Shown here: in pieces, positions 21,944-42,950 of the stretch
Layout: every line of letters starts with the position of its first letter
Numbering within the stretch: position 1 is the first letter of the stretch
NCBI GenBank assembly: GCA_963754985.1
Contig: CAVWIJ010000012.1
Coordinates: 514,249-578,248, forward strand
Direction: 5' to 3'
Length of the DNA: 64,000 bases
Source: an uncultured Holophagae bacterium
Lineage (GTDB): Bacteria; Acidobacteriota; Thermoanaerobaculia; Thermoanaerobaculales; Sulfomarinibacteraceae
Position numbers and translations under genes: made by a program
The notes under the pieces: generated by a model
What the model saw: only the letters and a program-made list of their open reading frames with translations
What the model was told of the DNA's origin: nothing
The model's database searches: none

Positions 21944-22210
21944 CTCCCGTGCCCGATTCCGCGCCCGGGGAGCCTGCCCTGAGCGAGCGGCGCGATCAGC
22001 GCCGGGAGTCGAAGGGTCCCCATGGTCGCACGTGGGACTTACCGATCGCGAAATGGCTGTTGCTTGAGGAGATCCTTCGACTCGCTGTCCTCGCGGACAG
22101 CTCGCTCAGGATGACTCGTGGGGGGAGCGGGGAAGGAAGGTGGACTCGGGCCCGGAAGCGGAAGCGGAAGCGGGAGGGGGCCTTATCACCTCTCACCTAT
22201 CGCCTATCAC
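21944..22210. repeat. Composite intergenic repeat (locus R4), the second copy of the 115-bp module, plus a heptamer tract
   Basis: The module lies at 22000-22114. Hexamers CCCGGAAGCGGAAGCGGAAGCGGG lie at 22150-22173. Four 7-nt units CCTTATC/ACCTCTC/ACCTATC/GCCTATC lie at 22181-22208. Confidence 0.7.
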
Positions 22211-22222
22211 TACAATGTCTCC

Positions 22223-25054
22223 GTGAGCGCTCTCACCGACCACCAGCGCCGGACCCTGGCCGACAGCGGCTGCGAGGTGCGCAGCGACGCCCTGACCCGG
22301 ACGCTCTACGCGACCGACGCCTCGATCTACCGGATCGAGCCGCGCGCGGTCGCCTTCCCGCGCTCGGCGGCCGAGACCGCGGCGCTCCTGCGCGCGGCGG
22401 CCGGCGCCGGGCTGTCCGTCATCCCCCGCGGCGCCGGCACCGGGCTGGCCGGCGGCGCGCTCGGCGACGGCGTGGTCGTCGACCTCGCCCGCCACAGCCG
22501 GTGGATCGACGGCCTCGACCTCGAGCGGCGGACCGTCCGCGTCGGCGCCGGGGTCGTGCTCGACCAGCTCAACGCCTTCCTCCGTCCCCACGGGCTGTGG
22601 TTCGGGCCGGACGTCGCCACCTCCTCCCGGGCCACCCTGGGCGGGATGATCGCCAGCAACTCCTCCGGCGCCCACGCGCCGGTCTACGGCACCACCGCCG
22701 ACCACGTCGAGGCCCTGGAGGTGGTGCTGGCGGACGGCACCGTGGCCCTCGTCGGGCGGGACGGCGCCGGGCTCGAGACGCTGCGCGACGAGGTCGACCG
22801 GGTCGTGGCGCGAGCATGCGGCCGCGATCGCCGACCGACTGCCGGACCTGCTCGTCAAGCACTGGCCGGGCTACGGTCTCGACGAGGTCCTGCGCCACCC
22901 GGGCGATCTCACGCGCCTGCTGTGCGGCAGCGAGGGCACGCTCGCGGCCGTGAGCTCGGCCGTGCTCCGGGTCGTGCCGTTGCCCACGCGCCGCAGCCTC
23001 GGGGTCGTCTTCTTCGCCTCGATGGCCGAGGCCATGGCGGCGGCGGTCGAGCTGCTCGAGCTCGAGCCGGCGGCGATCGAGCACATCGACCGACCCGCTC
23101 GTCGACCAGACCCGCGGCCAGCGCGAGTTCGCAGGCGGCGCGGGCCCTGCTCGGACTCGACGATGAGCCCTGCGAGTCGATCCTGATCGTCGAGCTCTTC
23201 GGCGAGGCGGAGGACCGCCTCGAATCGCTCGTCCGCTCCCGGCTCGGGTCGCGGCGGATGGCGCTGCGCGACCCGGCCGAGCAAGAGTTGGTGTGGGGTG
23301 TGCGGCGTGCCGGCCTGTCGCTGCTGAGCTCGATGCCAGGGTCGGCCAAGCCGGCCACCGGCATCGAGGACGTCTGCGTGCGGCCGCGCGACCTGCCGGC
23401 GTACGTGGCGGGGCTCCAGGAGATCCTGGCCCGGCTCGGCCTGAGCGCCTCGTTCTACGGCCACGTCGCGTCGGGCGAGCTCCACGTGCGGCCGGTCCTC
23501 GACCTGCACCGCGCCGAGGACGTCGCGAGGCTGCGCCGGGTCGCCGACGAGGTCGCGGACCTGTGCCGGCGCTTCGGCGGGTCGTTGGCCGCCGAGCACG
23601 GCCTCGGCATCGCACGCACCGAGTACCTCGAGGGCCAGGTCGGACCGGAGCTCGTCGCGGCCACGGCCGCGATCAAGCGGCTGTTCGATCCCGCCGGCGT
23701 GCTGAACCCGGGAAAGGTGGTCGACGACGGCCGCTATCGCATCGACCGCGACCTCCGGCTCGGCCCCGGCTCCGAGCTGGTGCTGACCTTCGCCGAGACC
23801 CTCGGCTTCGTCGACCGCGACCGCTCCTTCGCCGGCAACCTCGAGCAGTGCAACGGCTGCGGCGGCTGCCGCAAGGACGCGCCCACCATGTGCCCGACCT
23901 TCGTCGCCACCGGCGAGGAGATCCAGTCGACGCGCGGCCGGGCCAACACCATCCGGGCGGTGCTCGAGGGGCGGCTGGCCGCCGGCAGGCTGGACTCCGA
24001 GGAGCTCAGCGAGGCCCTCGAGAACTGCCTGTCGTGCAAGGCCTGTCGCCGCGAGTGTCCGTCCAACGTCGACCTCGCGCTGCTCAAGGCCGAGCTGCTG
24101 CACGCCCGCCACCGGCTTGCCGGCGTGCCCCTGCGCGACCGAGTCATTGCCGCGGCCGACGTCCTCGGCCGCCTCGGCTCGAGCGTGCCGTGGCTCGCCA
24201 ACGCGGTCGCCGGCTCGGCGCCGGGCCGCCGCCTCATCGCAGCCGCGCTCGGCTTCGACCCCTCCCGCCCGCTGCCCGCCTTCGCCGGGCAGCGCTTCGA
24301 CCGCTGGTTCGCCGCCCGGCCGCGGCCTTCGCCCGGCAGGAGGGGCCGAGTCGTGCTCTGGGACGACACCTGGGTCCGCTACCACGAGCCCGGGATCGGT
24401 CGCGCTGCGGTGGCGGTGCTCGACGCCGCGGGCTACGAGGTGGTGCTGGCGGAGGGCCGCCGCTGCTGCGGCCGGCCGGCGGCCAGCCGCGGGTTGCTCG
24501 ACGACGTGCGGCGCCTCGGCGAGCACAACGTTGCCCTCCTCCGTGATTTCGCCGAGGGCGCGTCGATCGTCTTCCTCGAGCCTTCCTGTTACTCGATGTT
24601 CATCGACGAGTACCGGCAGCTCCGGATCCCCGGCGCGGCCGAGGTCGCGGCGCGCTGCGTGCTCTTCGAGGAGCTACTGGCCGGCCTGCTGGGCTCGCAG
24701 CCCGACGCGCTGGCATTCCGCGGCGACGGCCTGCGGGTGGCGATCCACGGTCACTGCCACACCAAGGCCCTCGGCGACGCCCGCCTGCTGCCCCGGCTCG
24801 CGCAGCGGATCCCCGGGGCGCGCGCCGAGCTCCTCGCCACCGGCTGCTGCGGGATGGCCGGGGCCTTCGGCATGATGGCGTCGAAGGCGGCCTTGTCGCG
24901 CGCGGTGGCGACGCCCCTGGTGGAGGCGATCGAGTCCCAGCCGGAAGGCACGCTGGTCGTCGCCTGCGGCACGAGCTGCCGGGCGCAGATCCGCCACCTG
25001 AGCGACGCGAAACCTCTGCACATGGCCGAGCTGCTCGCCGCCTCGCTCGCTTGA
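22223..25054 (+). CDS. Fused FAD-binding (GlcD-like) and Fe-S/CCG-domain (GlpC/GlcF-like) oxidoreductase with three +1 shifts that restore the frame
   Basis: The GTG at 22223 is in frame with track ORF 22118..25054. Motifs are PRGAGTGLAGGA, AAEHGLGI, CNGCGGCRK...CP and CLSCKACRRECP (two 4Fe-4S motifs), plus C-terminal CCG-type cysteines (ATGCCGMAG). Residues encoded at about 22808-23131 read in f3/f1 (track ORF 22950..23186). Confidence 0.8.
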   Translation: MSALTDHQRRTLADSGCEVRSDALTRTLYATDASIYRIEPRAVAFPRSAAETAALLRAAAGAGLSVIPRGAGTGLAGGALGDGVVVDLARHSRWIDGLDLERRTVRVGAGVVLDQLNAFLRPHGLWFGPDVATSSRATLGGMIASNSSGAHAPVYGTTADHVEALEVVLADGTVALVGRDGAGLETLRDEVDRVVARACGRDRRPTAGPARQALAGLRSRRGPAPPGRSHAPAVRQRGHARGRELGRAPGRAVAHAPQPRGRLLRLDGRGHGGGGRAARARAGGDRAHRPTRSSTRPAASASSQAARALLGLDDEPCESILIVELFGEAEDRLESLVRSRLGSRRMALRDPAEQELVWGVRRAGLSLLSSMPGSAKPATGIEDVCVRPRDLPAYVAGLQEILARLGLSASFYGHVASGELHVRPVLDLHRAEDVARLRRVADEVADLCRRFGGSLAAEHGLGIARTEYLEGQVGPELVAATAAIKRLFDPAGVLNPGKVVDDGRYRIDRDLRLGPGSELVLTFAETLGFVDRDRSFAGNLEQCNGCGGCRKDAPTMCPTFVATGEEIQSTRGRANTIRAVLEGRLAAGRLDSEELSEALENCLSCKACRRECPSNVDLALLKAELLHARHRLAGVPLRDRVIAAADVLGRLGSSVPWLANAVAGSAPGRRLIAAALGFDPSRPLPAFAGQRFDRWFAARPRPSPGRRGRVVLWDDTWVRYHEPGIGRAAVAVLDAAGYEVVLAEGRRCCGRPAASRGLLDDVRRLGEHNVALLRDFAEGASIVFLEPSCYSMFIDEYRQLRIPGAAEVAARCVLFEELLAGLLGSQPDALAFRGDGLRVAIHGHCHTKALGDARLLPRLAQRIPGARAELLATGCCGMAGAFGMMASKAALSRAVATPLVEAIESQPEGTLVVACGTSCRAQIRHLSDAKPLHMAELLAASLA

Positions 25055-25086
25055 CCACGAAGAGAGTCTGGTGTCCGTGGGCGAGG

Positions 25087-25207
25087 ACCCCCGCCCGCTT
25101 CCGCGCCCCCTTCCGCATCCGGATGACTATTGACGGTCGGGACACGACCGCCCGGATTCGGGCTCGGGCGCGGACTCGGGCGCGGAAGGGGAAGCGGAAG
25201 CGGGTGA
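25087..25207. repeat. Hexamer-arm repeat (locus R5), an imperfect long hairpin
   Basis: CCGCCCGCTTCCGCGCCCCCTTCCGCATCCGG faces CCGGATTCGGGCTCGGGCGCGGACTCGGGCGCGGAAGGGGAAGCGGAAGCGGG across a spacer of about 30 nt. Confidence 0.6.
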
Positions 25208-25302
25208 AGGCACTGAGCCCCCGTCCTGCCAACTGAGCGAACCCGAAACGGCGGACTCTCGTTACTCCACGTGGAAGGATCGATTCCCGGTCCCCGAAAG
25301 GG

Positions 25303-25486
25303 CTAGCCCGGGAATCTCACCGGGTTTCGTCGCGAGGGTGGCGAGGTGCCGTGCGCAGTGGGGATTTCGTCCCGAGGGGCGCGGAGGCGTACTTGACAGT
25401 ACGTCGAGCACCGCGAGGCGAGAAAGCACCGCTGAGCGCGGTACATCGTCGGCCGCAGTAGAAAGTTGGTGAGATATCCGGGCTAG
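25303..25486. mobile_element. MITE-like 180-bp element, copy 1, with 19-bp terminal inverted repeats (17/19 match)
   Basis: CTAGCCCGGGAATCTCACC at 25303-25321 faces GGTGAGATATCCGGGCTAG at 25468-25486. The interior is about 92% identical to 32944-33123. There is no ORF of its own. Confidence 0.6.
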
Positions 25487-25510
25487 AATCGGTCCAGTCC
25501 GGGAGGCTAG

Positions 25511-26479
25511 ATGCAGATCTCGTTCGTGGAACCCCTGTCGCGCGCCTGGGAGCGGATGCGGCGGATGCTGTTCGCGCCCTTCGAGCTCGCACGTTGGCTG
25601 GTGCTCGGCTTCTCGGCGTGGCTCGCCGGGCTGGCGAGCAGCGACTGGGGCACGAAGCTGGCGGGGAACGCGCCGGACTCGATCGACGAGCACGCGCTCG
25701 TGCCGTTCGAGTTCGGGGAGCTGGCGGACGCGATCGCCGACCACCTCGTGTGGCTGCCGCTCATCCTGCTCGCCGTGCTCGTCGTCGCCGCCATCCTGAT
25801 CGCGCTGCTGTGGGTGAGCTCTCGCGGCAAGCTCGTCTTTCTCGACAACGTGGTCCACGAGCGGGCGGCGATCGTCGAGCCGTGGAAGCGCCTCGGAAAG
25901 CTCGGCGACTCCCTGTTCTGGTGGCGGCTCGGCTTCGCGGCGATCGTGCTCGCGATGGTGCTGGCGGTTCTGGCCGCGGTCGTCCTGCCGGCGGCCGCGG
26001 CATCGCTTGGCGAGACCCTGCGCGGCCTGTCGATCGCCGCCATCCTGCTCGGAGCGTTGGCACTCGCGACGATCGCCGTGGCGGCGTTGCTCGTGCTGCT
26101 GCTCCTCGAGAGCTTCGTGATCCCGATCATGTACCGCTTCGACCAGTCGGCCACGGCGGCGTGGCGGACGCTGCTGCCCTGGATCAAGCGCTTCCCCGGC
26201 TGGTTCCTCGCCTATGCCGCCGTGATCTTCCTCGCGGCGATCGCCTTCCAGATGATGGTGCTGGTCCTCTGCCTGTTCACCTGCTGCATCATCCTGATCC
26301 CCTACGTGGGCACGGTGATCCTGCTGCCGGTGTGGGTCCTGTACCGGTCCTATAGCGTCGAGTTCCTGGCCCAGCTCCACCCGGACTTCGACCTCTTCGA
26401 GGCGGCGGCCGTCACGCCGGCGCCGATCGAGACGGGCGAGGCGTCGCGCGAGCCCGAGTCCGGGGGTGACGTGGGCTGA
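25511..26479 (+). CDS. Hypothetical multi-pass membrane protein
   Basis: Intact 322-aa ORF with 6-7 hydrophobic helices (for example LPLILLAVLVVAAILIALLWV and MMVLVLCLFTCCIILIPYVGTVILLPVWVLY). I recognise no catalytic motif. Confidence 0.65.
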   Translation: MQISFVEPLSRAWERMRRMLFAPFELARWLVLGFSAWLAGLASSDWGTKLAGNAPDSIDEHALVPFEFGELADAIADHLVWLPLILLAVLVVAAILIALLWVSSRGKLVFLDNVVHERAAIVEPWKRLGKLGDSLFWWRLGFAAIVLAMVLAVLAAVVLPAAAASLGETLRGLSIAAILLGALALATIAVAALLVLLLLESFVIPIMYRFDQSATAAWRTLLPWIKRFPGWFLAYAAVIFLAAIAFQMMVLVLCLFTCCIILIPYVGTVILLPVWVLYRSYSVEFLAQLHPDFDLFEAAAVTPAPIETGEASREPESGGDVG

Positions 26480-26489
26480 GGACGTGCCG

Positions 26490-26905
26490 GAAGGGCAGTC
26501 GGGAACGGGAACGGAAACCCCTCGACTCGCGACGCCCTTACGCCGCTCGCTCGGGGAAGACTCCTCGGGCGCGGATCCGGCTCCGTCCTGCGGAGTACGC
26601 CGTGACACGAGCGGGCGGGCGGGTGGTTCACCGCCTCACTGCCTCACTGCTTCGGGATCGGGGACGGCAGCCCGTCCTCATCGTCGTCTTCGCAATCTTT
26701 GCGCCTTCGCGGTTCAAGTGCCCGATGGCGGGCGCGGAGACCCTTAGACTTGCGGCGCCGTGGCGCCGCTGCGCTCAGGGCAGGCTCCACGGGCACGGGC
26801 GCGGAAGCCTTCGACTCGCGGCATCGCTTCGCCGCTCGCGCAGGGCAGGCTCGCGTCGGGCGCGGGCGGGGGATCTAACCCCTAACCCCTGTCACCTAAC
26901 TCGCT
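26490..26905. repeat. Composite intergenic repeat region (locus R6)
   Basis: GGGAACGGGAACGGAAAC lies near 26500. The unit CTTCGACTCGC...GCTCGC.CAGGGCAGGCTC occurs twice (26520-26560 and 26806-26852). Heptamers CTAACCC/CTAACCC/CTGTCAC/CTAACTC lie at 26875-26902. Confidence 0.55.
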
Positions 26906-26909
26906 TCGC

Positions 26910-27842
26910 TCACGGCCTCGCAGCTTTCCACCCGTAGCCGTGATACTCCCAGTCGACGCGGTCGGGACGCAGGGTGAGCACGCCGAATCCTTCGCCGGTG
27001 CCGTGCCAGGCGCCGCGCCACCACTTGCCGCACAGGGCGCCGCCGGTGATGAAGGTGGTTTCTCGCCAGCGCAGCATCTCGGCGACGTGGAGGTGGCCCT
27101 GGAGCACGAGCAGCAGGTTGTGTCCCTCGAAGAGCTCCAGGACCTCCCGATTGTTGACCACCACCCGGTTGGCAGGCGCGACCGCGGTCGCCCCCTCGGT
27201 GGCCTGGTAGAAGCCGGTGAGCAGCGGCAGGTGGCTCGCGAGGACGATCGGCGTCGAGCGGTCGATCGACTCGAGCTCGGTCGCCAGCCAACGCAGCTGG
27301 TCCGGCTCGATCCGGCCGTGGTACTGGTCGTCGCCGCCGACCACCGACACCGCGTCGAGAATCAGGAGCCGGTAGCCGCCAACCCCGACCGACCGGTAGG
27401 TGCGCTCGAGAGAGAAGGCGCGGCGGAACTCGCCGCGCGGGTCGGCGCTCGGCGGGCTGCCGTCCTCCGGAATTGCCGCCACGAGGTCGTGGTTGCCGAG
27501 CGCCGGCTCGACCCTGGCCCGCAGCGCGCGGTGCATTTCGAGGTAGGCCTGCCAGCGCGGCGCCACCGTCGCGGACGAGGACTGGAAGCCGTCGGTGATG
27601 AGGTCGCCGCCGGCCACGATGAGCTCGGGCCGCTGTGCGTTGATCGCGGCCGCCGCCATCGCGAGCGCGCGCGGGGTCTCCCACTCGACCCTGGCGTGCA
27701 CGTCGGTGAAGAAGACGATCCGGAAGGCCTCGCCGGCGGCGCCGGGTGCGGCCCAGCTCGCGCGCAGCGGCAGGCCGGCCAGCGCGGCGCCGGAGAGGGC
27801 CAACAGCTCTCTCCTCGACAGGTGCTGGTTGGAACGGCTCAT
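26910..27842 (-). CDS. Tat-exported metallophosphoesterase
   Basis: The ATG at 27842 is in frame within track ORF 26910..29108. The twin-arginine signal is SRRELLALSGAALAG. Calcineurin-like motifs are FFTDVHA, GGDLITDG, GNHD and LQGHLH. Confidence 0.8.
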   Translation of the reverse strand: MSRSNQHLSRRELLALSGAALAGLPLRASWAAPGAAGEAFRIVFFTDVHARVEWETPRALAMAAAAINAQRPELIVAGGDLITDGFQSSSATVAPRWQAYLEMHRALRARVEPALGNHDLVAAIPEDGSPPSADPRGEFRRAFSLERTYRSVGVGGYRLLILDAVSVVGGDDQYHGRIEPDQLRWLATELESIDRSTPIVLASHLPLLTGFYQATEGATAVAPANRVVVNNREVLELFEGHNLLLVLQGHLHVAEMLRWRETTFITGGALCGKWWRGAWHGTGEGFGVLTLRPDRVDWEYHGYGWKAARP

Positions 27843-29100
27843 GAGGTGGCCTCCAGTCGGAGTGGGCGACGACGGACCAGGGCGTCGAGCGCCAGCAGGA
27901 TGGCCGCCGCCGCGAGCAGCCCGAAGCGCAGGCCGCGCTCCGAGACGGCCGTGATGAGGTGGGCGGCCGAGGAGCTGACGAACGGCCTCTCGGGGTCGTA
28001 CTGCTGCTCGAGAAGCTGCCGCAGGCGGGGCTTCAGCGTGAAGCTGGACTGCGCCAGGGTGCGGCCGAAGAGCCGCTCGAGCAGCTGCTGCTCCCGCAGC
28101 GCGATGGTCGCGTGCTCGCGAGCCGCCGCGGAGCCAGGTGGAGCCGAGCCGAGGCGACGAAGGTGGACATCCCGGCTGAAGAGGTGGACTCGCGCCTCGT
28201 ACAGGAAGGGGTCGTCGACCTCCGAGTGCTCCTGCTGGAAGCGCCGGTACCGCCCTTCCGGATAGCGGTCGAGCAGCGCCGCAACCTCGGCGGAACGGTG
28301 GCGGTCCTGCTGCGCGAGCTCGGCAAGGGTCAACCTGGATTTGAGCTCGCCGATGCCCGGCAGCCGGTGGCGGAAGCCGTACTCGGCCATGGCGTTGTCG
28401 GCGAGGGCGAGCAGCGCCAGGCCCGGGACGCGCTCCGCGTACCATGCGACGCGCTCGGGCGTGTTGGCCAGGCACAGCGCGAGCAGCAGGAGGAGGGCCG
28501 ACGCGAGGCGCAACGCCAGCGAGACCGACCAGGCCCGCGGCCGCCGCCACGGCCCGGGGTCCAGGCGCCACAGGGCTGCCGCCGCGAGCACGCAGGCGCC
28601 GGCGTTGACGGCCAGGTCCCGGAGGTCCCAGAATCCTGCCTGGGACGATCCACTGGATGATCTCGTCGACGGTTCCGACCAGGGCGCCCAGCAGCGCGGC
28701 GGTCGACCAGGATTGCCACGTCGGGCTCGGCCGGGCGCATCGCCCGGTAGAGCAGCACCGCGAGGATGCCGAACTGAATGAGGTGGACCGCCTCCTCGGG
28801 TCGCCTCCGCAGAATGCCAGGCGGATGCCCCGAAGGCGGCCGCGATCGCGACCAGCCAGGCGAGGTCGAGCAGGGTGGTCGACCGCGGCGACCGGCGCAG
28901 GAGGATGAACGCGGTCCCGAGTGCCGCCGCGACTGCAACGAGAACCGCCCCGAGGATCCACTCGGACCCGGGCGAGCCGAACACGTTCTCCTGGAGCGGG
29001 CGTACCAGAGGGATGCCCGCGAACAGGAGCGCGGTCCACGCCGCGGCCGCGATCGCGGCCGGCTCGGTGCCGCGTCGGCTCGCGCGAGAGCCGGTCAGGA
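27839..29100 (-). CDS. VanZ-like membrane protein with a long C-terminal extension, at least 2 frame breaks and an unresolved start
   Basis: The C-terminal two-thirds lies in track ORF 27839..30043. The core is split over 28330..28938 (EEAVHLIQFGILAVLLYRA) and 26910..29108 (LLGALVGTVDEIIQWIVPGR), then continues as WDLRDLAVNAGA. The stop overlaps the next start (ATGA at 27839-27842). Confidence 0.45.
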
Positions 29101-29212
29101 TCAGCCACTCGCTACGATCGTACCCGACGCCGGCGCCGCCTGGGACGGCTGGTGCGGCGTCGTCGGCTGCGGTACAACTGGTGGCCGCATACCGGCGACA
29201 GCGGAGGCGGCC

Positions 29213-30799
29213 ATGGCGCGCGGCGACCACATCCTGGCCATCGACCACGGCACCCAGAGCGTGCGCGCACTGCTCTTCGACCCGAGGGGCACCCTCGTCC
29301 ACAAGGCGCGGGTCGAGGTCGAGCCCTACACCTCGCCGCGGCCGGGCTGGGCGGAGCAGGACCCGGAGCTCTACTGGCGCTCGCTCGGCGAGGCGTGCCG
29401 GCTGCTGTGGGCCGCATCGTCGGTGCCGCGGGAGGCGGTCGCGGGGGTCGCCCTGACCACCCAGCGGGCGACCATGATCAACGTCGACCGCGCACGGCAA
29501 GCCGCTGCGGCCGGCCATCGTCTGGCTCGACCAGCGCCGCACCGAGGGCCTGGCGCCGGTCGGCGGCGCGTGGGGCGTCGCCTTCCGCGCTCGCGCGGAT
29601 GGCGGAGACGGTGGCCTATTTCCAGGCCGAGGCCGAGGCCAACTGGATCCATGCCAACCAGCCGCGAGGTCTGGGAGCAGACCCACAAGTACCTGTTCCT
29701 GTCCGGCTTCCTGACCCACCGCCTGGTCGGCCGCTTCGTCGACTCGGTCGGCTGCCAGGTCGGCTACGTGCCCTTCGACTACACGCGGCCTGCGCTGGGC
29801 GGGTCCACGGCGACTGGAAGTGGCGGCGCCCTGGCGATCGAGCGCGAGATGCTGCCCGAGCTCGTGCCGCCCGGCGAGGTGCTGGGCGAGATCACGGCGG
29901 CGGCCTCGGCGGCCACCGGCATCCCCGCGGGCCTGCCGCTGATCGCGGCGGCCGCCGACAAGGCCTGCGAGGTCATCGGGGCCGGCTGCCTCGAGCCCCA
30001 CGTCGCCTGCCTGTCCTACGGCACCGACGGCCACCATCAACACGACGCACCGGCGCTACGTCGAGGCGATCCCGATGATCCCGCCCTACCCGGCGGCGGT
30101 GCCCGGCGCCTACACGCTCGAGGTGCAGATCAACCGCGGCTACTGGATGGTCGTCGTGGTTCAAGCGGGAGTTCGGGCTCCGCGAGCAGCGGATCGCGGA
30201 CGAGCGCGGCATCGCGCCGGAGGAGCTCTTCGACGAGCTGGTGGCCGCCGTCCCGCCGGGCTCGATGGGGCTGGTGCTGCAGCCCTACTGGTCGCCCGGC
30301 GTCAAGGTGCCCGGGCCCGAGGCCAAGGGTGCGGTGATCGGCTTCGGCGACGTCCACACCCGGGCCCATCTCTACCGGGCGATCCTCGAGGGTCTGGCCT
30401 ACGCGCCTCCGGGAGGGGGGCGAGCGCTGCCAGCGGCGCAGCGGCGTGCCGCTGACCGAGATCCGGGTTGCCGGCGGCGGGTCGCAGAGCGACGCCGCGA
30501 TGCAGATCACGGCCGACGTCTTCGGCCTGCCCGCGGCACGGCCCCACGTCTACGAGGCCTCCGGCCTGGGAGCGGCGATCGACGCGGCCGTCGGCCTCGG
30601 GCTGCACCCCGACTTCGAAACCGCGGTCGCGGAGATGACCCGGCGCGGCCGCCAGTTCGAGCCCGACCCGGCAAGCCACGAGGTCTACGAGGGGCTCTAC
30701 CGCGAGGTCTACCTCAAGATGTACGCGCGGCTGCGGCCGCTCTACGAGGAGATCCGCAGGATCACCGGGTATCCGAAGGGGTTGGGGGAGAGGGGATAG
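29213..30799 (+). pseudogene. FGGY-family carbohydrate kinase (xylulokinase/glycerol-kinase-like) with at least 6 frame changes as assembled
   Basis: The ATG at 29213 gives MARGDHILAIDHGTQSVRALLFD. Further fragments are [70 protein letters not shown] and IRVAGGGSQSDAAMQITADVFG, spread over f2, f1, f2, f3, f1 and f2. Confidence 0.65.
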
Positions 30800-31060
30800 G
30801 GAGTAGGGCCCCCGCTTCCGCTTCCGCGCCCGCTTCCGATACCGGTTCCGCGCCCGACCTGATTCCGCTCCCGTCCCCGTTCCCGACCCGGCCGGCCCTG
30901 ATCGGGCCGCACGTCCGTGTCCGATCTTCAAGGCATCATCCGAGCTCGCGTTGCGCGCGGTTTGCGCGGCGGTGGTCGTCCCCGCCGCCAAGGTCGAGTC
31001 GTCGCGTCGGAAGCGGACTCGGGCGCGGAAGCGGAAGCGGGCGCGGGAATCAGCCACGCG
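30781..31060. repeat. Composite intergenic repeat (locus R7): heptamer/G4 tract plus a perfect 22-bp inverted hexamer-arm pair
   Basis: GGGGGAGAGGGGATAGGGAGTAGGG lies at 30784-30808 and covers the kinase stop codon. CCCGCTTCCGCTTCCGCGCCCG (30811-30832) is the exact reverse complement of 31019-31040, with a 186-nt spacer. Confidence 0.75.
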
Positions 31061-31077
31061 TCTTCTGGCCGCGTGAG

Positions 31078-32943: not shown

Positions 32944-33123
32944 AGCCCGGATATCTCACCGGGATTCGTAGCGAGGGCGGCGAGGTGCCGTGCGCAGTGG
33001 GGATTTCGACCCGAGGGGCGCGGAGGCGTACTTTATGGTACGTCGAGCACCCCGAGGCGAGAAAGCACCGCTGAGTGCGGTACATCGCCGGCCGCAGTAG
33101 AAAGTTGGTGAGATATCCGGGCG
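32944..33123. mobile_element. MITE-like 180-bp element, copy 2, with perfect 16-bp terminal inverted repeats
   Basis: GCCCGGATATCTCACC at 32945-32960 faces GGTGAGATATCCGGGC at 33107-33122. The element abuts the elbB stop codon (33124-33126). Confidence 0.6.
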
Positions 33124-33938: not shown

Positions 33939-34691
33939 ATGGCGAGGACACCTCACGGGAGCTTGGGCAGCAGCGTGGCGGTGCGACCGGCGGAGTTCCA
34001 GATGCGCTTTCGCGAGCTTCTGGAACGGGCAGCGGCTGCGCGCAAGCCGTTGTTGGAACGACCCGCCCAGCTCGGGCCCTTCCTGACCGTTTCCCGCGAG
34101 GTCGGATCCGGCGGCGCCGAGGTGGCGCGGCTGGTCGGCCTGCGGCTCGGCTGGGCGGTATTCGACAAGGAGCTGGTCGAGGATCTCGCCCGCCGGCTCG
34201 AGCTGTCGCCCCAGATGGTCGAGCTGCTGGACGAGACTCGCTCCGACTGGTTCCACGAGACCATGCTCAGCCTCATGAACTCGAGGATCGTGCTCCAGAA
34301 CAACTACCTGTCGATGCTCGGCAAGGTCATGCACCTCGCGGCCTACGAGGGGAAGGTGATCTTCGTTGGCCGCGGCGGCCACCTGCTGCTCCCCCGTGAC
34401 GCCGGGCTGAGGGTGCGGGTGATCGCCCGGCGCGAGACCCGGCTGGAGACCTACCAGGCGCGGGAGGGGCTGAAGGCCGACGAGGCGGAGCGCGAGCTCG
34501 ACCGGCTCGAGGCTGGCCGCGCCGACTTCGTGCGCCGCCACTTCCGCCGCGAGCCGGACGACCCCTACCAGTACGACATGGTGCTCGACTCGTCGATGTT
34601 CGGGATGGAGGGCTGCGCCGAGCTGGTGTGTCGGGCGCTGGAGCTTCGCGGCTTGATTGCCAAGAAGGAGGGATTAGGGGCTCGGGACTAG
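33939..34691 (+). CDS. Cytidylate-kinase-like (AAA/P-loop kinase) family protein
   Basis: The ATG at 33939 is preceded by GAGGAGGG. FLTVSREVGSGGAEVARLVGLRLGW is the P-loop-like start of the Cytidylate_kin2 family. The last 8 codons and the stop lie inside repeat R8. Confidence 0.65.
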   Translation: MARTPHGSLGSSVAVRPAEFQMRFRELLERAAAARKPLLERPAQLGPFLTVSREVGSGGAEVARLVGLRLGWAVFDKELVEDLARRLELSPQMVELLDETRSDWFHETMLSLMNSRIVLQNNYLSMLGKVMHLAAYEGKVIFVGRGGHLLLPRDAGLRVRVIARRETRLETYQAREGLKADEAERELDRLEAGRADFVRRHFRREPDDPYQYDMVLDSSMFGMEGCAELVCRALELRGLIAKKEGLGARD

Positions 34692-34868
34692 GGGAAAGGC
34701 CGCCACCCGTCCCCGTTCTCGTCCCCGTTCCCGTTCCCGTTCCCGGGTCCGCACGCTGCTCCGCTTCTGCGCGCCGCTTCCGCGCCCGCATCGCGAGTCC
34801 GCGTCCCCCGCAGCGGCGAGCCCAACCGTCCGGGCTCGGAAGCGGACGGGGAAGCGGAAGCGGGTGGA
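34665..34868. repeat. Composite intergenic repeat (locus R8): 7-nt-phased G4 tract plus hexamer arms
   Basis: GGGATTAGGGGCTCGGGACTAGGGG lies at 34670-34694 with G-runs starting every 7 nt. (CCGTYC)n runs over 34708-34745, CGCTTCCGCGCCCGC lies near 34775, and CGGAAGCGGACGGGGAAGCGGAAGCGGG lies at 34837-34864. Confidence 0.65.
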
Positions 34869-34926
34869 TGTGCGTGACCGAGACGCAACAGGCTGTGGCT
34901 TCGGTGTCCTTCTCCGGCCTCTCCCC

Positions 34927-36069: not shown

Positions 36070-36743
36070 GATGCGACGAGGTTGTCGGACTGCTCGACGG
36101 GTACGCTGAGGGCTCGCTCGCGGCGGACGTCGCGGCCCGGATCGACGACCACCTGGCGGGATGCCCCCGGTGTGCAAGCGAGCTCGAGGGGCAGCGGCGG
36201 CTGCTCGCTCGTGTCGCCGACCTGCCGCGCGAGATCGAGCCGTCCCGCGACCTGTGGCCGGCGCTGGCCGCCCGGCTCTCCGTCCCGCCGACGGTGGTCG
36301 AAGGCCGCTTCGGCGGCAGCCGGCGGTGGCGCCTCGCCGCAGTTGCGGCGGCGATGCTGATGGCCGCGGGATCGCTGCTGATCGCCTACTCGCTCGGACG
36401 CCAGCACGTGGGCGGCCCGACGACGGCCCGCGGGCAGCTGGAGTCGCCGGTGGCGGTGCCGGCCAGATTGGCAGGGACCGGCGTCGCCGAGGCCGAGGCC
36501 GAGTTCGTCGAGGCCCGCGACCAGCTGCTGGCGGCGCTCGCCGCCCGGCGCGGCACGATGTCGCCGGAAACGCAGCGGGTCGTCGACGACAACCTGAAGC
36601 TGATCGACGGCGCGATTGTGAGGATCACTGCCGCGCTCGCCGACGATCCGTTGAATCCGAGGCTGGCGAACCGGCTCGCCGGGGCGTACCGGACGCAGAT
36701 TGAGCTCTTGCAGCGGGCCACTGCACTGCCCGCAGAGATTTAG
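36066..36743 (+). CDS. Anti-sigma factor (zf-HC2 type, single TM helix)
   Basis: The ATG at 36066 overlaps the sigma factor stop (ATGA). The zinc motif is H-x3-C-x2-C (DDHLAGCPRC), and the TM helix is WRLAAVAAAMLMAAGSLLIAY. Confidence 0.7.
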   Translation: MRCDEVVGLLDGYAEGSLAADVAARIDDHLAGCPRCASELEGQRRLLARVADLPREIEPSRDLWPALAARLSVPPTVVEGRFGGSRRWRLAAVAAAMLMAAGSLLIAYSLGRQHVGGPTTARGQLESPVAVPARLAGTGVAEAEAEFVEARDQLLAALAARRGTMSPETQRVVDDNLKLIDGAIVRITAALADDPLNPRLANRLAGAYRTQIELLQRATALPAEI

Positions 36744-36752
36744 GAGGGTGTC

Positions 36753-37628: not shown

Positions 37629-37723
37629 GGGCCACGAGCCTCATCGGACCAGGCGGCGCGGCGCTGCCGCGCCCCGGCAGCGAGCATGAGGAGCGCGCGC
37701 AGGGGCTTTCGCCCTGCGCAGGT

Positions 37724-39743
37724 TTATGCCGCCGGCTCCTCCGCTGGCGTCTTGCGGCGACGGCGGCGCCGAGACCGCCGCTTCTTGGCCGGCTCCTGCC
37801 CGTTCGTCACCTCGGCAGGAGCTGTCGGGAGGTCTTGGCCGGACGCGCCCGGCGGCTCGGCTGGCGCCTCGCCGGCGGCGGCGCCTTTCTTGTGTCGGCG
37901 GCCCCCGCGGCGGCGCCGCTTCGCCTTCTCGGGCTCGCCGGCCGGCGGCCCGCCGCCAGCCTCGGCGCCGGGCTCGTGCTCCGGTTCGCCCATTGCATCG
38001 GCCGGCGGCGCGGCCAGGTCGTTGCCGCTGGCCGGCTCGGCCGGCAGCTCGCCGGGTCCGCCGCCCTTCTTGCGGCGGCGCCCCCCACGCCGGCGTCGCT
38101 TGGCCTTCTCAGGCTCGCCGCCGCCGTGCGTGACGGCGTCGTCGGCCTCGTCGTCGTCCAACTCGGGCTCGTTCTCCCCGGGGCGCCCGTCTGCCCGCTC
38201 CTCTCCCGCCGCCAGGTCCGCGACGGTCACCGCCGGCGCCGCGGCGACCGGAGCCTCGTGCTCGCGGTCACGGTCGAACCACTCGAGCTTCTCCTGCGAT
38301 CGGTGGAGGGCGGTCGCCGCGACGACCTCGATCCGGATGTCGAACTCCCGCTCGAGCTCCGCGATCTGCTGCCGGTGGTCGTTCTGCAGCGCGTCGGCGA
38401 GCTCGGGGTGGAGCTCGACGCGGACCCGCTTGAGCCGGCCGGTCACCGCGCGGGTCTCGATTCGGCGCAGCACGCTCAGGCTGACGAGCTCGGGGCTCGC
38501 GATGCTGCCGGTGCCGGCGCAGGTCGGGCACTGGCGGTGGGTGCGCAGCTTGAGCTCCTTGGTGATGCGCTGGCGGTTGATCTCGAGCAGCCCGTTCGAC
38601 GAGATCCGGCCGACCGAGAACTTCGCCCGGTCGTCCTTCATGGCCTCGCGCAGCCCGCGCTCGACGTCCTTGCGGTGCTTCATGGAGCGCATGTCGATGA
38701 AGTCCACGACCACCAGCCCGCCGATGTCGCGAAGCCTCAGCTGCCGGGCGACCTCGGTCGCGGCCTCGAGGTTGGTCGCGACCGCGGTGTCCTCCTGGCT
38801 CGAGGCGCCCCGGGACCGCCCGGAGTTGACGTCGATCGCGGTCAGCGCCTCGGTGCCGTCGATGACGATCGAGCCGCCGGACGGAAGCTCGACCCGGCGC
38901 TGGTAGATGCGGTCGATCTGGGGCTCGAGGTCGAAGCGGCTGAACAAGGGCATCCGCTCGGAGTAGCGGGTGAGCCGGGTCTTGGCGCGCGGCATGAAGG
39001 TCTGCATGTAGGCGCCAACCTTCTCGAATGTGTCGTCGTCGTCGACCAGGACCTCGTCGATGCTCGAGTCGAGGGAGTCGCGCAGCACCTGCAGGATGAG
39101 GTCCTGGTCCGAGTAGAGCAGCCGTGTCCCCTTGCCGGTCGCGGACTGGGCGTAGCACCTTCTTCCACAGCCGGAGCAGGGCGCTGAGGTCGCGGTTCAG
39201 CGAGGCCTTGGGCTGGTCGCCGGCATTGGTGCGGGCGATCACCCCGAAGCCCTCGGGAAGGTCGAGCTGGCCGATCCGCTCGCGCAACACGCCACGAGTC
39301 TCGCCGTCCTCGAGCTTGCGTGAGACGCCGCGCGCCTCCTCGAAGGGCATCAGTACCAGGTAGCGCCCGGCAATGCTGAGGTTGGTGGTGAGCAGCGCGC
39401 CCTTGGAGCCGATGCCGTCGCGGACCACCTGGACCAGCACCGGCTTGCCCTTCTCGAGGAGCTGGTCGATGCGGTGGTGGCGGCGCTCGGAATCGAGCTT
39501 GCGGTGGGCGGCGGCCGGGACCACGTCCTCGGCGCGCAGCAGGCCGTGGCGCTCGGCGCCGAAGTCGAGGAAGGCGGCGTCGAGGCTCGGCTGCAGGCTG
39601 GCCACGACTCCGCGGTAGATGTTGCCCCTGTAGAGGCCGGTTTCCGACGTCGACACCGCATAGGCGTCGAGGACGCCGCGGTTGACGATCGCCACCCGCA
39701 CCTCTTCCGGTCGGTGGGCGTTGATCAGCAGTTTGCGTGCCAT
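37724..39743 (-). CDS. Rne/Rng-family ribonuclease with an Arg-rich C-terminal tail and one frame break
   Basis: The N-terminal S1 domain lies in 38268..39743 (NIYRGVVASLQPSLDAAFLDFG). The catalytic part lies in 37724..39088 (GGSIVIDGTEALTAIDVNSG, GGLVVVDFIDM, CPTCAGTG). They join at about 39130. Confidence 0.8.
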
Positions 39744-39753
39744 GTGCTCTCCG

Positions 39754-40816
39754 TCAGCAGCGGTACAGCACGGCGCCCCAGTTGAGCCCGCTGCCGAGAC
39801 CCACGAAGCAGACCAGGTCGCCCGCCTTGAGCCGCCCCTGCTGGCGGGCCTCGTGGAAGGCGATCGGAATCGTGGCTGCGGTGGTGTTGCCGTAGCGCTG
39901 AATGTTGTTGAAGACCTTGTCGTCGGGGAGCCCGAGCCGCTTCTGGACCCCCTCGTTGATGCGCAGATTCGCCTGGTGCATGATCAGCAGGTCGAGGTCG
40001 TCGAGGCTCAGTCCGTTGCGCTTCAGGATCTCGAGGGTCACCTCGGGCATCGCGGTGACAGCGAGCGCGTAGACCTTGCGCCCCTCGACGATCGGCGTGA
40101 TGTCGCCGCTTTCGATCATCTCCTGGCTGATGTAAGGCCGGAAGGCGCTGCCAGCCGCCTTGGTCCACAGCCGCTCGGCCTCGTTGCCGTTGCAGTGGAT
40201 GACGCAGTCGAGGACGCCGCAGTCCGTGCCCTCGACGCCCTCTACCACCACCGCGCCGGCGCCGTCGCCGAACAGCACGGTGCGGTCGCGGAACAGGGTG
40301 TTCCGGTCGTACTGCTCCTTGCTGACCGGCCCGTCGGCGTCGCCCATCGCCACGTCCCAGCTCTGGCGGTCCCACGGCTGGAGGCAGCTGTGGACCTCGG
40401 CGCCCACCACCAGCACCCGCCGGTGCTGCCCGGAGCGGATGACGGCATCGGCGAGCTGCAGGTGCGTAGAGAAAGCCAGCGCACTGCTGGCGGATGTCGA
40501 GGCAGGGAATCGTGGCGAGGCCGAGCTTTCGCTGCAGGAAGGGGGACGAGCCCGGGAAGTAATAGTCCGGGGTCATGGTGGCCAGGATCAGGTAGTCGAT
40601 GTCGTCGAGGGTGCGGCCGGCGCTTTCGACCGCCTGGCGGGCGGCGGGCACCGCGATGTCCGAGGTCGCCTCGCCGCGCGCCGCGAAGCGCCGCTCGACG
40701 ATGCCGGTCCGCACCTGGATCCACTCGTCGGTGGTGTCCATGATGCGGGACAGGTCGTTATTGTCGACGATCTTGGGGGGCACGTGCATACCGGTACCGG
40801 TGATCACTGCACGCAT
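39754..40816 (-). CDS. fabH: 3-oxoacyl-ACP synthase III with one frame break
   Basis: The ATG at 40816 is preceded by AAAGGAGGGG. The sequence MRAVITGTGMHVPPKIVDNNDL...TDEWIQVRTGI...QQCAGFLY (track ORF 39725..40837) joins 39754..40416 (HQANLRI, NIQRYGNTTAATIPIA, GLGSGLNWGA) at about 40440. Confidence 0.85.
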
Positions 40817-40889
40817 GTCCCCTCCTTTCGCACGCACTATAGCTCACGAGGATCGACGAATGGCGGCGGTTGCACACGGAATCGGCTAG

Positions 40890-41192
40890 CGGCTTCCGGC
40901 GGTGGGATGCGACCCCGACCCGCTTCCGCGCCCCCGTCCGCGCCCGATTCCGGGATTGAAGCGGAACGATGAGTGGCAACGACGCGTTCGGCCGCGGAAG
41001 CGGATCCGGCATCGCCTTCTCGCTTCGCCGTGACAACAGCGGGCTGGGGACGGATCACTCGTTCGATCGACGGAACGATCCGGTATCACCTCGTCGGAAG
41101 CGGGCGGGAGGACGGATCACCGACCACGTATCACTTCCCCCGGAAGCGGGCTCGGAAGCGGGCTCGGAAGCGGGCTCGGAAGCGGAAGGAGG
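40890..41192. repeat. Composite intergenic repeat (locus R9)
   Basis: CCCGCTTCCGCGCCCCCGTCCGCGCCCGATTCCGGG runs from about 40918 to 40953. A threefold 12-mer tandem (CGGAAGCGGGCT)x3 followed by CGGAAGCGGAAGG lies at 41141-41189. Confidence 0.65.
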
Positions 41193-41219
41193 GCGCCGAC
41201 TCCGTGATATCGTCTCGAC

Positions 41220-41852
41220 GTGGCCGACGGCATCCGGATCGTCTTCTCCGAGGTCGCGAAGCGCTTCGACGAGCGCGTGGTCTTCCGCTCGGTGGCCGGC
41301 GAGGCGGCGCCCGGCGAGGTGCTCGCGGTGACCGGGCCCAACGGCTCCGGCAAGTCGACCCTGCTCGCGATCCTCTGTGGCTTGCTGCGGCCGACCAAGG
41401 GCTCGGTCCGCTACTTGCAGGGTGATGGCAGCGAGCTCGAGCGCGCGGCGTGGCGGCAGGTGCTGGGTGCGGTGGCGCCCGCCATGTCGGTGTACGAGGA
41501 GCTCGACGCGATGGAGAACTTGCGCTTCTTCGCGCGGGTGCGCGGCCTGCGGGATGCCGACGCCCGCTGCCTCAGCTGCCTCGAGCGGGTCGGGCTCGAC
41601 CCTGGCCGGCACACCCTGGTGGCGGGATTCTCCACCGGCATGCGCCAGCGGCTGAAGATCGCCCAGGCGATGCTGCACCGGCCGGAGGTGCTCTTCCTCG
41701 ACGAGCCCGGCTCCAACCTCGACCCGGAGGGCCGCATCTGGCTCGAGGGTTGGGTGCTGGCGGAGCAGGCCGCCGGCACCACGGTCGTGCTCGCCACCAA
41801 TGACCCGCGCGAGATGGAGTGGGGGACCAGGCGTGTGGCGCTGGCTCTCTGA
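41220..41852 (+). CDS. ccmA: Heme-exporter ABC ATPase CcmA-like
   Basis: Intact 210-aa ORF with a GTG start. Walker A is GPNGSGKSTL, the signature is FSTGMRQRL and Walker B is LFLDEP. It sits directly upstream of ccmB. Confidence 0.75.
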   Translation: MADGIRIVFSEVAKRFDERVVFRSVAGEAAPGEVLAVTGPNGSGKSTLLAILCGLLRPTKGSVRYLQGDGSELERAAWRQVLGAVAPAMSVYEELDAMENLRFFARVRGLRDADARCLSCLERVGLDPGRHTLVAGFSTGMRQRLKIAQAMLHRPEVLFLDEPGSNLDPEGRIWLEGWVLAEQAAGTTVVLATNDPREMEWGTRRVALAL

Positions 41853-42513
41853 AGTGTGGGCGGTCACCGCCAAGGACCTGCGGACCGAGTTCCGGACGCG
41901 GGTCGCGCTGAGCTCGGTGGGGCTGTTCGCGCTGACGACGCTGATCGCGGTCGCCTACTCGGTGGGCCCGTTCCGGATCAGCGTCGAGGACCGCCCGTTC
42001 CTGCTCGCGGTGCTGCTGTGGATCGTGGTCTTCTTCGCGGCGCTGGCCGGCCTCGATCGCGGCTTCGTCAAGGAGGAGGAGAGCCACACCGCGCCGCTGC
42101 TCCGGCTGTCGGCGTCGCCGCACGTGGTGTGGGCGGGCAAGCTGGTCTTCAACCTCGTGCTGCTGGCGGCGCTGCTGGCCGCGCTGGTGCCGCTGTACTG
42201 CATCCTGATGGGCTATCGCATCGAGCTCGTGGGCTGGTTCGTGCTGCTGCTCGCCGCCGGCGGCTACACGCTGGCGGTGGAGGCAACGATCGTCGCCGCG
42301 ATCATCGCCCGCGCCCAGGGTCGCGGCGCACTGTTCCCGGTGCTCGCGCTCCCGCTACTGCTGGCGCTGCTGGTGTTCCTGATCGAGGGCACGACCGCCA
42401 CCGCGGAGGGCTCGCTGGAGTCCGTCCGCGCGTCGCTGCGCGCGGTCGCGTCGCTGGGAGGCGCGATGACGGTGGTGTCGGCGATGCTCTTCCCGCTGGT
42501 CTGGAATGACTAG
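41833..42513 (+). CDS. ccmB: Heme exporter membrane protein CcmB
   Basis: It lies in the frame of track ORF 41800..42513. Candidate GTG starts are at 41833 and 41854. It has six TM helices, and KDLRTEFRTR and FPVLALPLLLALLVF are CcmB-like. Confidence 0.7.
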   Translation: MWRWLSEVWAVTAKDLRTEFRTRVALSSVGLFALTTLIAVAYSVGPFRISVEDRPFLLAVLLWIVVFFAALAGLDRGFVKEEESHTAPLLRLSASPHVVWAGKLVFNLVLLAALLAALVPLYCILMGYRIELVGWFVLLLAAGGYTLAVEATIVAAIIARAQGRGALFPVLALPLLLALLVFLIEGTTATAEGSLESVRASLRAVASLGGAMTVVSAMLFPLVWND

Positions 42514-42514
42514 G

Positions 42515-42775
42515 AGCGTGTTGGGCATGGGCCCCTCGGCGTACTCGGGTCGTAGGCCTTGGGGTGTGCTTGAGGCGTCTCGGTCGCTGGCTGGCCTACG
42601 CCCCGCGCGCGCCGAGAACGATGCGCTGCGCGCATCCAGGAGGAGATGGTGCCGCAGTGGCCGTCTGACGACACTTCGGTCAACCACGCCCGCCAAGAAA
42701 GGCCGATGCGGTACGAACTCTGAGTGCGGCACATCGCCGGCCGCAGTAGAAAGTTGGTGAGGTATCCGAGATGGT
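42515..42775. repeat. Divergent relative of the 180-bp element, inserted between ccmB and ccmC
   Basis: 42719-42770 (CTGAGTGCGGCACATCGCCGGCCGCAGTAGAAAGTTGGTGAGGTATCCGAG) matches the right end of copies 1 and 2. The upstream 200 nt is only patchily similar, and no clear left terminal repeat is present. Confidence 0.45.
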
Positions 42776-42838
42776 GTGCCCGCGGGCACCGCGAACGCCG
42801 GTTGGGAGGGACGGGATTGCCGATGGGGGATGACGTGT

Positions 42839-42950
42839 TAGGGTCTAGGGGCTAGGCTTTAGAAGCCAGAACCGGGGCGGTAGCGTTTGGTGCGATTCCC
42901 GCCCCCGCTTCGTCGGAAGCGGGCGCGGAAGCGGAAGCGGGCACGGGGGT
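42839..42950. repeat. Heptamer tract plus hexamer-arm repeat (locus R10)
   Basis: TAGGGTC/TAGGGGC/TAGGCTT/TAGAAGC/CAGAACC lie at 42839-42873. The core CGGGCGCGGAAGCGGAAG lies at 42920-42937, preceded by the small hairpin CCCGCTTC-GTCG-GAAGCGGG. Confidence 0.6.

Follow-up and report, generated by a model that had tools for sequence, protein, structure and literature searches.

Heptanucleotide tracts beside hexamer hairpin arms and gene ends in a bacterial genome

The five tracts and their neighbouring genes

We analysed a window of 64,000 nucleotides (contig C12:514249-578248) of the bacterial assembly G000, which comprises 4.73 Mb with 70% GC and is around 72% complete. Five tracts with a 7-nt period, reported in a preliminary description of this DNA, lie in the window among genes and arrays of 6-nt units (hexamer arms), and they are short copies of a heptanucleotide family, mostly without a partner array. 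All five were found where they had been claimed, with the quoted letters matching; tracts 3-5 are read on the plus strand, and tracts 1-2 need the minus strand (Table 1). The neighbouring genes were assigned by Pfam (FGGY_C, Cytidylate_kin2, FAD-oxidase, metallophosphoesterase, ccmB/ccmC). Genes were called with a home-made program based on codon bias, and the calls cover 72% of the assembly; for this reason the classes of flanks used below were set by local coding potential.

The FGGY gene reads into tract 3, which codes its tail KGLGERG and contains its stop TAG (30797-30799) as well as a second TAG (30804-30806). Similarly, tract 4 codes the tail GLGARD of the cytidylate-kinase-like gene (Cytidylate_kin2) and contains its stop TAG (34689-34691). 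Both tracts are indeed canonical G-quadruplex (G4) motifs holding stop codons, with four runs of three or more G at period 7 in each. Tract 2 begins 7 nt past the TGA (26910-26912) of a minus-strand metallophosphoesterase gene. Tract 1 is followed on the minus strand by CCCCC and a hexamer arm (22144-22179), and the tract itself lies 15 nt upstream of the start of the FAD-oxidase gene (GTG 22223). Tract 5 is placed within the 507-nt spacer between ccmB and ccmC, 325 nt past the former and around 150 nt ahead of the latter; its TAGs do recur every 7 nt and fall in all three frames, and downstream of them there are a short hairpin (42904-42923) and a G-type arm (42911-42946). Every tract had been said to abut a hexamer arm and to sit at a gene end: this holds for tracts 1-4 as regards the 6-periodic arms, but tract 5 is not at a gene end.

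The heptad phasing had been called strict, which is overstated, as the identity at lag 7 is 16/21, 15/21, 14/21, 13/21 and 18/28 for tracts 1 to 5 respectively. The window holds 15 loci with a lag-7 identity of at least 14/21 and an order-3 Markov simulation gives 16.4, that is, the window is at chance level and no single tract is significant by autocorrelation.

The C-type arm next to tract 3 and its G-type partner pair in the predicted RNA fold. The predicted fold also pairs tract 4 with the next CCCGTT array, no better than with shuffled arrays. Furthermore, the window contains a complete hairpin with heptamer arms and no gene inside, which starts exactly on a TGA stop (62258-62260) and has the GAAGAAC-type unit that is also found around a PF05635 gene on contig C6. 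An Rfam search of the window matched no rRNA and no other family.

Regarding the neighbouring genes, a TACAAT stands directly after tract 1 and 7 nt ahead of the FAD-oxidase GTG (22205-22225), and it may be a -10 box giving a leaderless transcript. The frame of the FGGY kinase (28778-30799) is broken: FGGY_N matches only profile positions 2-88 in the open reading frame (ORF) 28778-30337, while FGGY_C falls in another ORF of the same frame, 30446-30799. This points to frameshifts or an in-frame stop, and the gene may be either a pseudogene or affected by assembly errors.

Table 1. Heptamer tracts and hexamer arrays in the window (window coordinates; TRF, Tandem Repeats Finder)
Feature	Position	Strand	Units and remarks
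Tract 1	22181-22210	-	GATAGGC GATAGGT GAGAGGT GATAAGG; GGTGATA-type unit; TRF 22184-22210, period 7, 3.9 copies
Tract 2	26875-26902	-	GAGTTAG GTGACAG GGGTTAG GGGTTAG; then CCCCCGCCCGCGCCCG
Tract 3	30778-30808	+	GGGGTTG GGGGAGA GGGGATA GGGAGTA GGG; five G-runs, period 7; canonical G4 motif
C-type hexamer arm	30812-30888	+	CCGCTT/CCGCGC units, directly 3' of tract 3; partner G-type arm 31005-31046
Tract 4	34670-34694	+	GGGATTA GGGGCTC GGGACTA GGGG; four G-runs, period 7; canonical G4 motif
Hexamer arrays 3' of tract 4	34706-34863	+	(CCCGTC/CCCGTT)n 34706-34745; C-type arm 34774-34791; G-type arm 34828-34863
Tract 5	42839-42862	+	TAGGGTC TAGGGGC TAGGCTT TAG; four TAGs (42839, 42846, 42853, 42860), period 7
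Complete gene-less hairpin with heptamer arms	62258-62374	+	TGAAGGA AGAACGA AGAACGA AGGACGA; inverted arm ..TTCGTTC TTGGATC TTCAATC TTCGA at 62347-62374; TRF 62259-62288 and 62347-62374, period 7

The heptanucleotide family at hexamer arms and gene ends

Although the single tracts are at chance level, the family is real on genome-wide evidence. In G000, two TAGs on the same strand are spaced by 7 nt 235 times, against 32-74 times for the other spacings that are not multiples of 3. The same spacing was found 103 times for TAGG (20 or less at the others) and 28 times for TAGGG (0-2 at the others). There are 188 TAG chains of period 7, 32 of them with three to five TAGs, and their commonest units are TAGGTGA (26), TAGCGGA (25) and TAGGATC (16). 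Arrays of three copies with at most one mismatch number 76 for period 7, 693 for period 6 and 21 for period 8, whereas simulation gives 8, 62 and 0 respectively. The strict period-7 arrays lie wholly outside called genes in 53 of the 76 cases, and their unit families are GGTGATA, GCGGATA, GGGG[ACT]TA/GGATCTA and GAAGAAC/TGAAGAT, besides the octamer GGCAGTGA. An exact-pattern scan of metagenome contigs found no strain-level variants of the arrays.

The hexamer arms themselves have a fixed order, since a C-rich array (CCGCTT/CCGCGC...) is followed by a G-rich array within 400 nt 215 times and the reverse order appears only 8 times. The heptamers lie 5' of the C-rich arm, on its outer flank: 39 TAG chains have a C-type arm at most 60 nt downstream on the same strand, and 3 have a G-type arm there. 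The preliminary description had proposed that period 7 is coupled to the period-6 arms and to gene boundaries, and the comparison with random non-coding windows bears this out. The heptamer motif is present in the 50-nt flank 5' of 74 of the 811 C-arms (9.1%) and in 30 of 6000 such windows (0.5%), which is an 18-fold enrichment (Fisher p = 7e-46), so the coupling is real. It is polar as well, because the motif is found at C-arms only 11 times on the opposite strand and 14 times on the 3' side. Overall, around 9-10% of the C-arms bear a heptamer flank (R7).

Regarding the gene ends, the arrays near gene 3' ends close all frames on the sense strand only in 18 cases and on the antisense strand only in 1 case, and the same ratio is 1:5 near gene 5' ends in G000. 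Four relatives add 12:5 at the 3' ends and 1:12 at the 5' ends. These counts show that the stop-bearing strand points from the neighbouring gene into the spacer. The bias of R7 to gene 3' ends (19:11) does not go beyond that of the hexamer arms (319:223).

As a TAG every 7 nt closes every frame, the arrays can overlap the 3' end of a gene and supply its stop. Among the 64 chains with a gene reading in, a TAG of the chain is the stop in 31, and it is the first TAG of the chain in 22 of those. Genes facing a C-arm have a TAG stop in 47% of the cases, against 24% genome-wide, and 16 genes with a TAG stop finish in G-tract heptamers, with tails such as GARG, GERG or GLGARD. The FGGY gene makes it possible to see both states. 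In other genera it ends with TGYP-x followed by TGA, whereas in G000 and its relatives G003, G002 and G006 the frame continues into the repeat and stops on a repeat TAG. This shows that the arrays can replace the natural stop codon and that the FGGY tail KGLGERG is encoded by the repeat.

We also observed that at least 14 unrelated genes share the tail G-A/E-R-G followed by TAG, read from heptamers of the (GGGGCTA)2 type (e.g. C12:22547-24628 and C14:98268-99140).

Other repeats are found in the same spacers. A dispersed repeat of around 190 nt (…cccgggaatctcaccgggtttcgt…gccgcagTAGaaagttggtgagatatccggg) appears three times in the window (around 25300-25480, 32960-33110 and 42560-42770), always in spacers with hexamer arms, and it matches no Rfam family at the gathering score. 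A repeat family starting with aggagcgtgTAGGGCATAGgcccct is found at 42514-42610 of the window and at 25 sites genome-wide (e.g. C1:206022 and C10:115653), often at a TAG stop or 10 nt past it; this family makes up 25 of the 188 chains with TAGs 7 nt apart and is not a tandem heptamer array. Two copies of an element of around 180 nt with inverted ends of around 50 nt (GGAGCCTGCCCTGAGCGAGCGGCGC…GAGTCGAAGGGTC) are nested between C-type and G-type hexamer arms (window 16880-17060 and 21960-22118), and a GAGCCTGCCCTGAGCGAGCGG module follows many C-arms genome-wide.

PF05635 cassettes and array turnover in the relatives

G000 has two PF05635 genes and both are framed by arrays, which confirms the link locally. 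The gene at C6:133286-133600 stands between an (AGAAGGA AGAACGA...) array, right after the TGA of the upstream gene, and an inverted (..GTTCTTC..) array. The other one, at C18:223854-224165, is framed by C-type and G-type hexamer arms and has a RecA-like (ImuA) gene on one side and an IMS-family (ImuB) gene on the other. In the relatives, inverted arrays of 7-mers or 8-mers frame PF05635 in 10 of the 18 loci read. One of them belongs to G006, a genome around 89% identical to G000 at the FGGY locus, where the gene at G006:C2:171724-172038 is framed by GGATCTA/GGGGATA ... TAGATCC/TATCCCC, units of the type seen in tracts 3 and 5. The arms of the imuA-imuB cassette are CCGCTT...CGGAAG in G000 and CCGTTC...GGGAAC in its orthologue of G006, that is, both arms changed together. 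The cassettes lie between protein-coding genes, imuA and imuB being one example, and not in a 23S rRNA helix.

The number of strict heptamer arrays per Mb is 16 in G000, 25 in G003, 230 in G004, 288 in G001, 156 in G012, 119 in G035 and 15 in G034. The hexamer arrays behave inversely, with 146 (G000) and 162 (G003) per Mb against 25-81 in the other five genomes. PF05635 is present in 37 copies in G001, 31 in G004 and 17 in G012, in two copies in G000, and in one copy in G003 and in G034. The correlation between PF05635 copies and heptamer density (Spearman rho 0.82) is only suggestive, because the n=7 genomes are related and non-independent. Many heptamer arrays of the relatives are inverted pairs making hairpin arms. 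A rule by which the stop-bearing arm or the purine arm would come first in these pairs was rejected, as the polarity is inconsistent. To judge from these densities, it seems that the high-GC sublineage has largely swapped heptamer for hexamer arms and that the tracts are its minority heptamer component.

The arrays turn over quickly. G003 is colinear with C12 over 400 kb at around 87% identity, and at its orthologous sites there is no array for tract 1, a single GGGGTTAG unit is missing from tract 2 and tract 3 has an extra unit, both as exact 7-nt indels, and an inverted pair of (GGATCTA)n arrays stands instead of tract 5. The 3' end of FGGY carries from one to three TAG units across G000, G003, G006 and G002, differing by whole units, and more distant relatives have other stop-bearing heptamers there, namely (TGAAAGT)3, (AACGTTN)n and (TGAGAAA)2. 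The hexamer arms of the FGGY spacer are of the CCGCTT type in G000 and of the CCCGTT type in G003, and again both arms changed together. Altogether, G000 differs from G003, G006 and G002 by exact 7-nt indels and by the presence or absence of arrays. These comparisons show that the arrays grow and shrink by whole 7-nt units and that they are gained or lost between species of around 87% identity.

Regarding the genes around the cassettes, the region G000:C18:222354-225665 corresponds to the one PF05635 cassette conserved in the low-copy genomes, which is placed within the mutagenesis operon imuA-imuB-dnaE2. In G000 and G006 it is flanked by the genes of the RecA-like ImuA and of the IMS-family ImuB, and in G011, G031, G034, G028 and G025 imuB and/or dnaE2 are beside a PF05635 cassette. 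The G035 cassette has (GGGGTCA)n..(TGACCCC)n arms and is inside dnaE2, and an open frame of 1131 aa runs into the PF05635 part. PF05635 proteins are homologous to Avd, the accessory protein of diversity-generating retroelements. A search for a reverse transcriptase (RVT_1) in the assembly, which is around 72% complete, gave no match, and the neighbours of the C18 gene are ImuA-like and ImuB-like; a retroelement context was rejected on these grounds.

Explanations, known repeats and meaning

We propose that the tracts are surviving heptamer unit types of hairpin-arm repeats found throughout this bacterial order, whose full hairpins enclose a PF05635 gene, and we consider this probable though by no means settled. 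We also lean towards the view that the heptamers and the hexamers represent two types of unit of a single hairpin-cassette repeat; the two periods would be coupled because both are arm repeats of cassettes able to enclose that gene. The small gene held in complete hairpins would thus be PF05635 (a four-helix-bundle protein related to Avd and known as the "23S rRNA intervening-sequence protein"). In the high-GC sublineage the arms would have turned largely to hexamers (CCGCTT...AAGCGG), and the heptamers would persist as the outer, gene-proximal flank, in the order gene, R7 heptamers, C-rich hexamer arm and, further on, G-rich hexamer arm. The arrays would arise by slippage, and what keeps the arms of a cassette complementary may be selection or the copying of one arm from the other. 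Once transcribed, the arms would form double-stranded stems just past the stop, and these stems may be cut by RNase III, whose gene is encoded in G000 together with that of Rho, or may shield the 3' end, by analogy with the ORF-bearing intervening sequences (IVS) of 23S rRNA. Folding as G4 would be a possible side property, restricted to the G-rich subfamily.

Several results weigh against this proposal. A PF05635 gene and a clear inverted partner are both lacking at all five tracts, and genome-wide only 14 of 160 TAG chains have an inverted partner downstream (control around 3.4). G035, with its 119 heptamer arrays per Mb, has a single PF05635 copy. Furthermore, R7 does not stand in for an absent G-arm, given that 64% of the C-arms with R7 and 62% of those without it have a G-arm partner; such a substitution was rejected. 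A specific hairpin between R7 and the C-arm was rejected too: the duplex energy is -25.8 kcal/mol for an array with its own downstream 50 nt, -26.1 with swapped partners and -25.4 for shuffled arrays, and therefore the pairing is driven by composition only.

A bolder version is that the PF05635 protein creates, copies or maintains the tandem-repeat arms, perhaps together with the error-prone polymerase operon ImuA-ImuB-DnaE2 that holds the one conserved copy, the hundreds of gene-less arrays of 6, 7 and 8 nt, with the five tracts, being its footprints. We offer it as a speculation that is rather unlikely to be right.

Other explanations have to be weighed. The arrays could be autonomous, slippage-prone long simple sequence repeats (SSRs) with no function and no link to PF05635, whose placement reflects tolerated positions only. 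Their fast turnover by whole-unit indels, the different unit sequences that lineages have at the same site, the lack of a partner array in most cases and the heptamer-rich G035 with its one PF05635 gene agree with this, as does the fact that stop-carrying arrays can touch the 3' end of a gene and others cannot. Besides, the long SSRs of many bacteria are most often heptanucleotides, and these have been ascribed to polymerase slippage (Mrazek 2007, as quoted in PMC4679880 and PMC4692102). However, tolerance explains neither the 18-fold concentration on the outer 5' flank of the C-arm nor the fixed inward orientation by gene 5' ends, and it leaves aside the fixed order of the arms (215 against 8), their concerted change at orthologous loci and the same unit types framing PF05635 genes, so we hold the SSR explanation to have a small, if appreciable, chance. 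It has also been considered that the G-rich heptamers fold as G4, in DNA or RNA, at the stop and thus regulate termination, translation or mRNA stability, which we judge improbable. Canonical G4 motifs are indeed denser in G000 than in simulation (0.13 against 0.06 per kb), and within 30 nt of stops there are 48 in sense, where around 22 are expected; the antisense ones are also enriched (36). GGG at period 7 with at least four tracts was counted in 39 arrays, tracts 3 and 4 among them, while periods 5, 8 and 9 give 6, 3 and 4; around 30 of the 39 stand directly before a C-arm. By number of G-tracts these arrays are 31 with four, 6 with five, 1 with six and 1 with eight, which is reminiscent of the preference for four units in Xanthomonas and Nostoc, although with three tracts the count at period 7 (167) is indistinguishable from background (periods 5 and 8 give 172 and 108). 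The repeats of those bacteria form G4 in vitro, and transcripts begin or end there above controls (PMC4692102). Nevertheless, the trait is not shared by the family: only tracts 3 and 4 satisfy the motif while tracts 1, 2 and 5 do not, a same-strand G4 motif overlaps 17 of 163 TAG chains and none of the 32 chains with three or more TAGs, and the commonest units (TAGGTGA, TAGCGGA, TAGGATC) have no run of three G and therefore cannot form G4, yet their placement and polarity are identical. In addition, the abutting C-rich arm can form a duplex of around -26 kcal/mol with the G-rich tract, competing with the G4, and the arrays at the same sites in relatives are AT-rich (e.g. TGAAAGT, AACGTTT, TGAGAAA). 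From the motifs, the G4 potential seems real for a G-rich subfamily, the 39 arrays, and not a defining trait of the family.

A combination of stops and Rho loading, where TAGs in all frames would release the ribosomes and the C-rich, G-poor hexamer arm would act as a rut-like site, appears very unlikely to us. The all-frame stops do stand directly before CCGCTT-type arrays of around 55% C and 20% G, the C-rich arm comes first for transcripts of both strands (215:8), and Rho is encoded; but the orientation is the same by gene 5' ends, where no ribosome enters, units are found inside an apparent operon (tract 5 between ccmB and ccmC), and 90% of the C-arms lack R7. Hardly any weight is left for the arrays being the end module of a mobile element that a transposase carries along, like miniature inverted-repeat transposable elements or repetitive extragenic palindromic (REP) sequences. 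Such an origin could be suspected from the inverted arms, the three Y1_Tnp genes of G000 and the other dispersed repeats in the same spacers. Against it, there is no conserved full-length copy, the matches between loci being of 73-87% over low-complexity arms, the interiors are unique and unconserved even between G000 and G003, and no target-site duplications were noticed in the flanks read, where no systematic search was made. Moreover, the RAYT-like gene on C19 has REPs of its own, unrelated to the arrays.

Concerning that gene, a Y1_Tnp gene like those of REP-associated tyrosine transposases (RAYT) at G000:C19 285236-286372 (oriented) has repeated GTAGGCGCGCATCCCATGCGCGCC palindromes on both sides, and from these it can be taken as a REP/RAYT system of the classical kind, which has no relation to the heptamers and hexamers. 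The assignment of the heptamers to REP/RAYT was rejected because the REPs of G000 (GTAGGCGCGCATCCCATGCGCGCC) are different in sequence. REPs and the bacterial interspersed mosaic elements built with them do resemble the arrays in being abundant structured extragenic repeats, often just after stops and sometimes in operons, but they are conserved imperfect palindromes of around 35 nt with a GTAG end. Cyanobacterial short tandemly repeated repetitive (STRR) heptanucleotides, which Mazel et al. reportedly described in 1990, are said to be tandem, to form several unit families and to be dispersed in non-coding DNA, in another lineage and with other units than here.

The preliminary description could not assign the coupling of periods 7 and 6 at gene boundaries to any known class of element, but heptameric repeats near stops are known. 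Xanthomonas (GGGAATC) and Nostoc (GGGGA(C/T)T) have G-rich heptameric SSRs near stops, with a four-unit preference and G4 formation in vitro (Rehm 2015, PMC4692102). As here, they are tandem 7-nt units with a run of three or four G, strongly intergenic, which make a canonical G4 motif at four units; the unit number varies between close species, and some form inverted pairs. The strand rule is also the same, near or over the stop on the coding strand and on the non-coding strand upstream of genes. The differences are the phylum (here apparently Acidobacteriota), the units (here GGGGCTA and GGGGATA), the co-occurrence here with units that are not able to form G4 (GGTGATA, GCGGATA, GGATCTA) in the same placement, and the role as polar partners of a hexamer hairpin arm, undescribed for Xanthomonas and Nostoc; the paper draws no link to PF05635 either. 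Heptamers closing all frames are known as well, as the TAACTGA intergenic direct repeats of marine Beggiatoaceae, cyanobacteria and Bacteroidetes (MacGregor 2015, PMC4679880). These direct repeats of 2-6 copies stop all three frames, some of them overlap the stop of the upstream gene, and their phylogenetic distribution is scattered, as here. Unlike them, the present arrays have units such as TAGGTGA, TAGCGGA, TAGGGGN and TAGGATC and are accompanied by hexamer arms. The orientation differs too, as the TAACTGA repeats run forward and lie mainly a few nt upstream of starts, whereas the strand with the stops is here antisense to the downstream genes.

The likeness to the ORF-bearing IVS of 23S rRNA (Coxiella and Leptospira among others) concerns the cassettes, as there too a stem of terminal inverted repeats encloses a four-helix-bundle ORF of PF05635 (PMC4990558). 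In the Coxiella IVS, with its S23p ORF in the stem, the 5' side has tandem GACAGAT heptamers whose number differs from strain to strain, and the first one is where RNase III cuts (PMC4990558). The arms here are instead long tandem arrays of period 6, 7 or 8, and there are hundreds of gene-less copies, the five tracts being solo arrays.

Heptanucleotides are the commonest long intergenic simple repeats of bacteria, with strand-specific clustering at stops, and their function and origin are not known (PMC4679880, PMC4692102). The arrays described here extend this known and unexplained class to a new lineage and add to it a variant in which a heptamer flank is joined to a hexamer arm. For annotation this is worth taking into account, since in G000 at least 14 genes receive from the arrays their stops and short C-terminal tails (GARG, GERG) coded by the repeat. 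G000 and the related genomes offer a natural series, where the period of the hairpin (7, 6, 8) and its unit change within one genus, both arms together, and where the abundance of the arrays appears to follow the copy number of a small Avd-like gene framed by them. An old descriptive puzzle may thus be turned into testable questions, namely whether PF05635 binds or propagates the arms and whether the stems are RNase III sites. If the PF05635 protein did make the arms, there would be a protein cause for the long-unexplained excess of intergenic heptanucleotide repeats.

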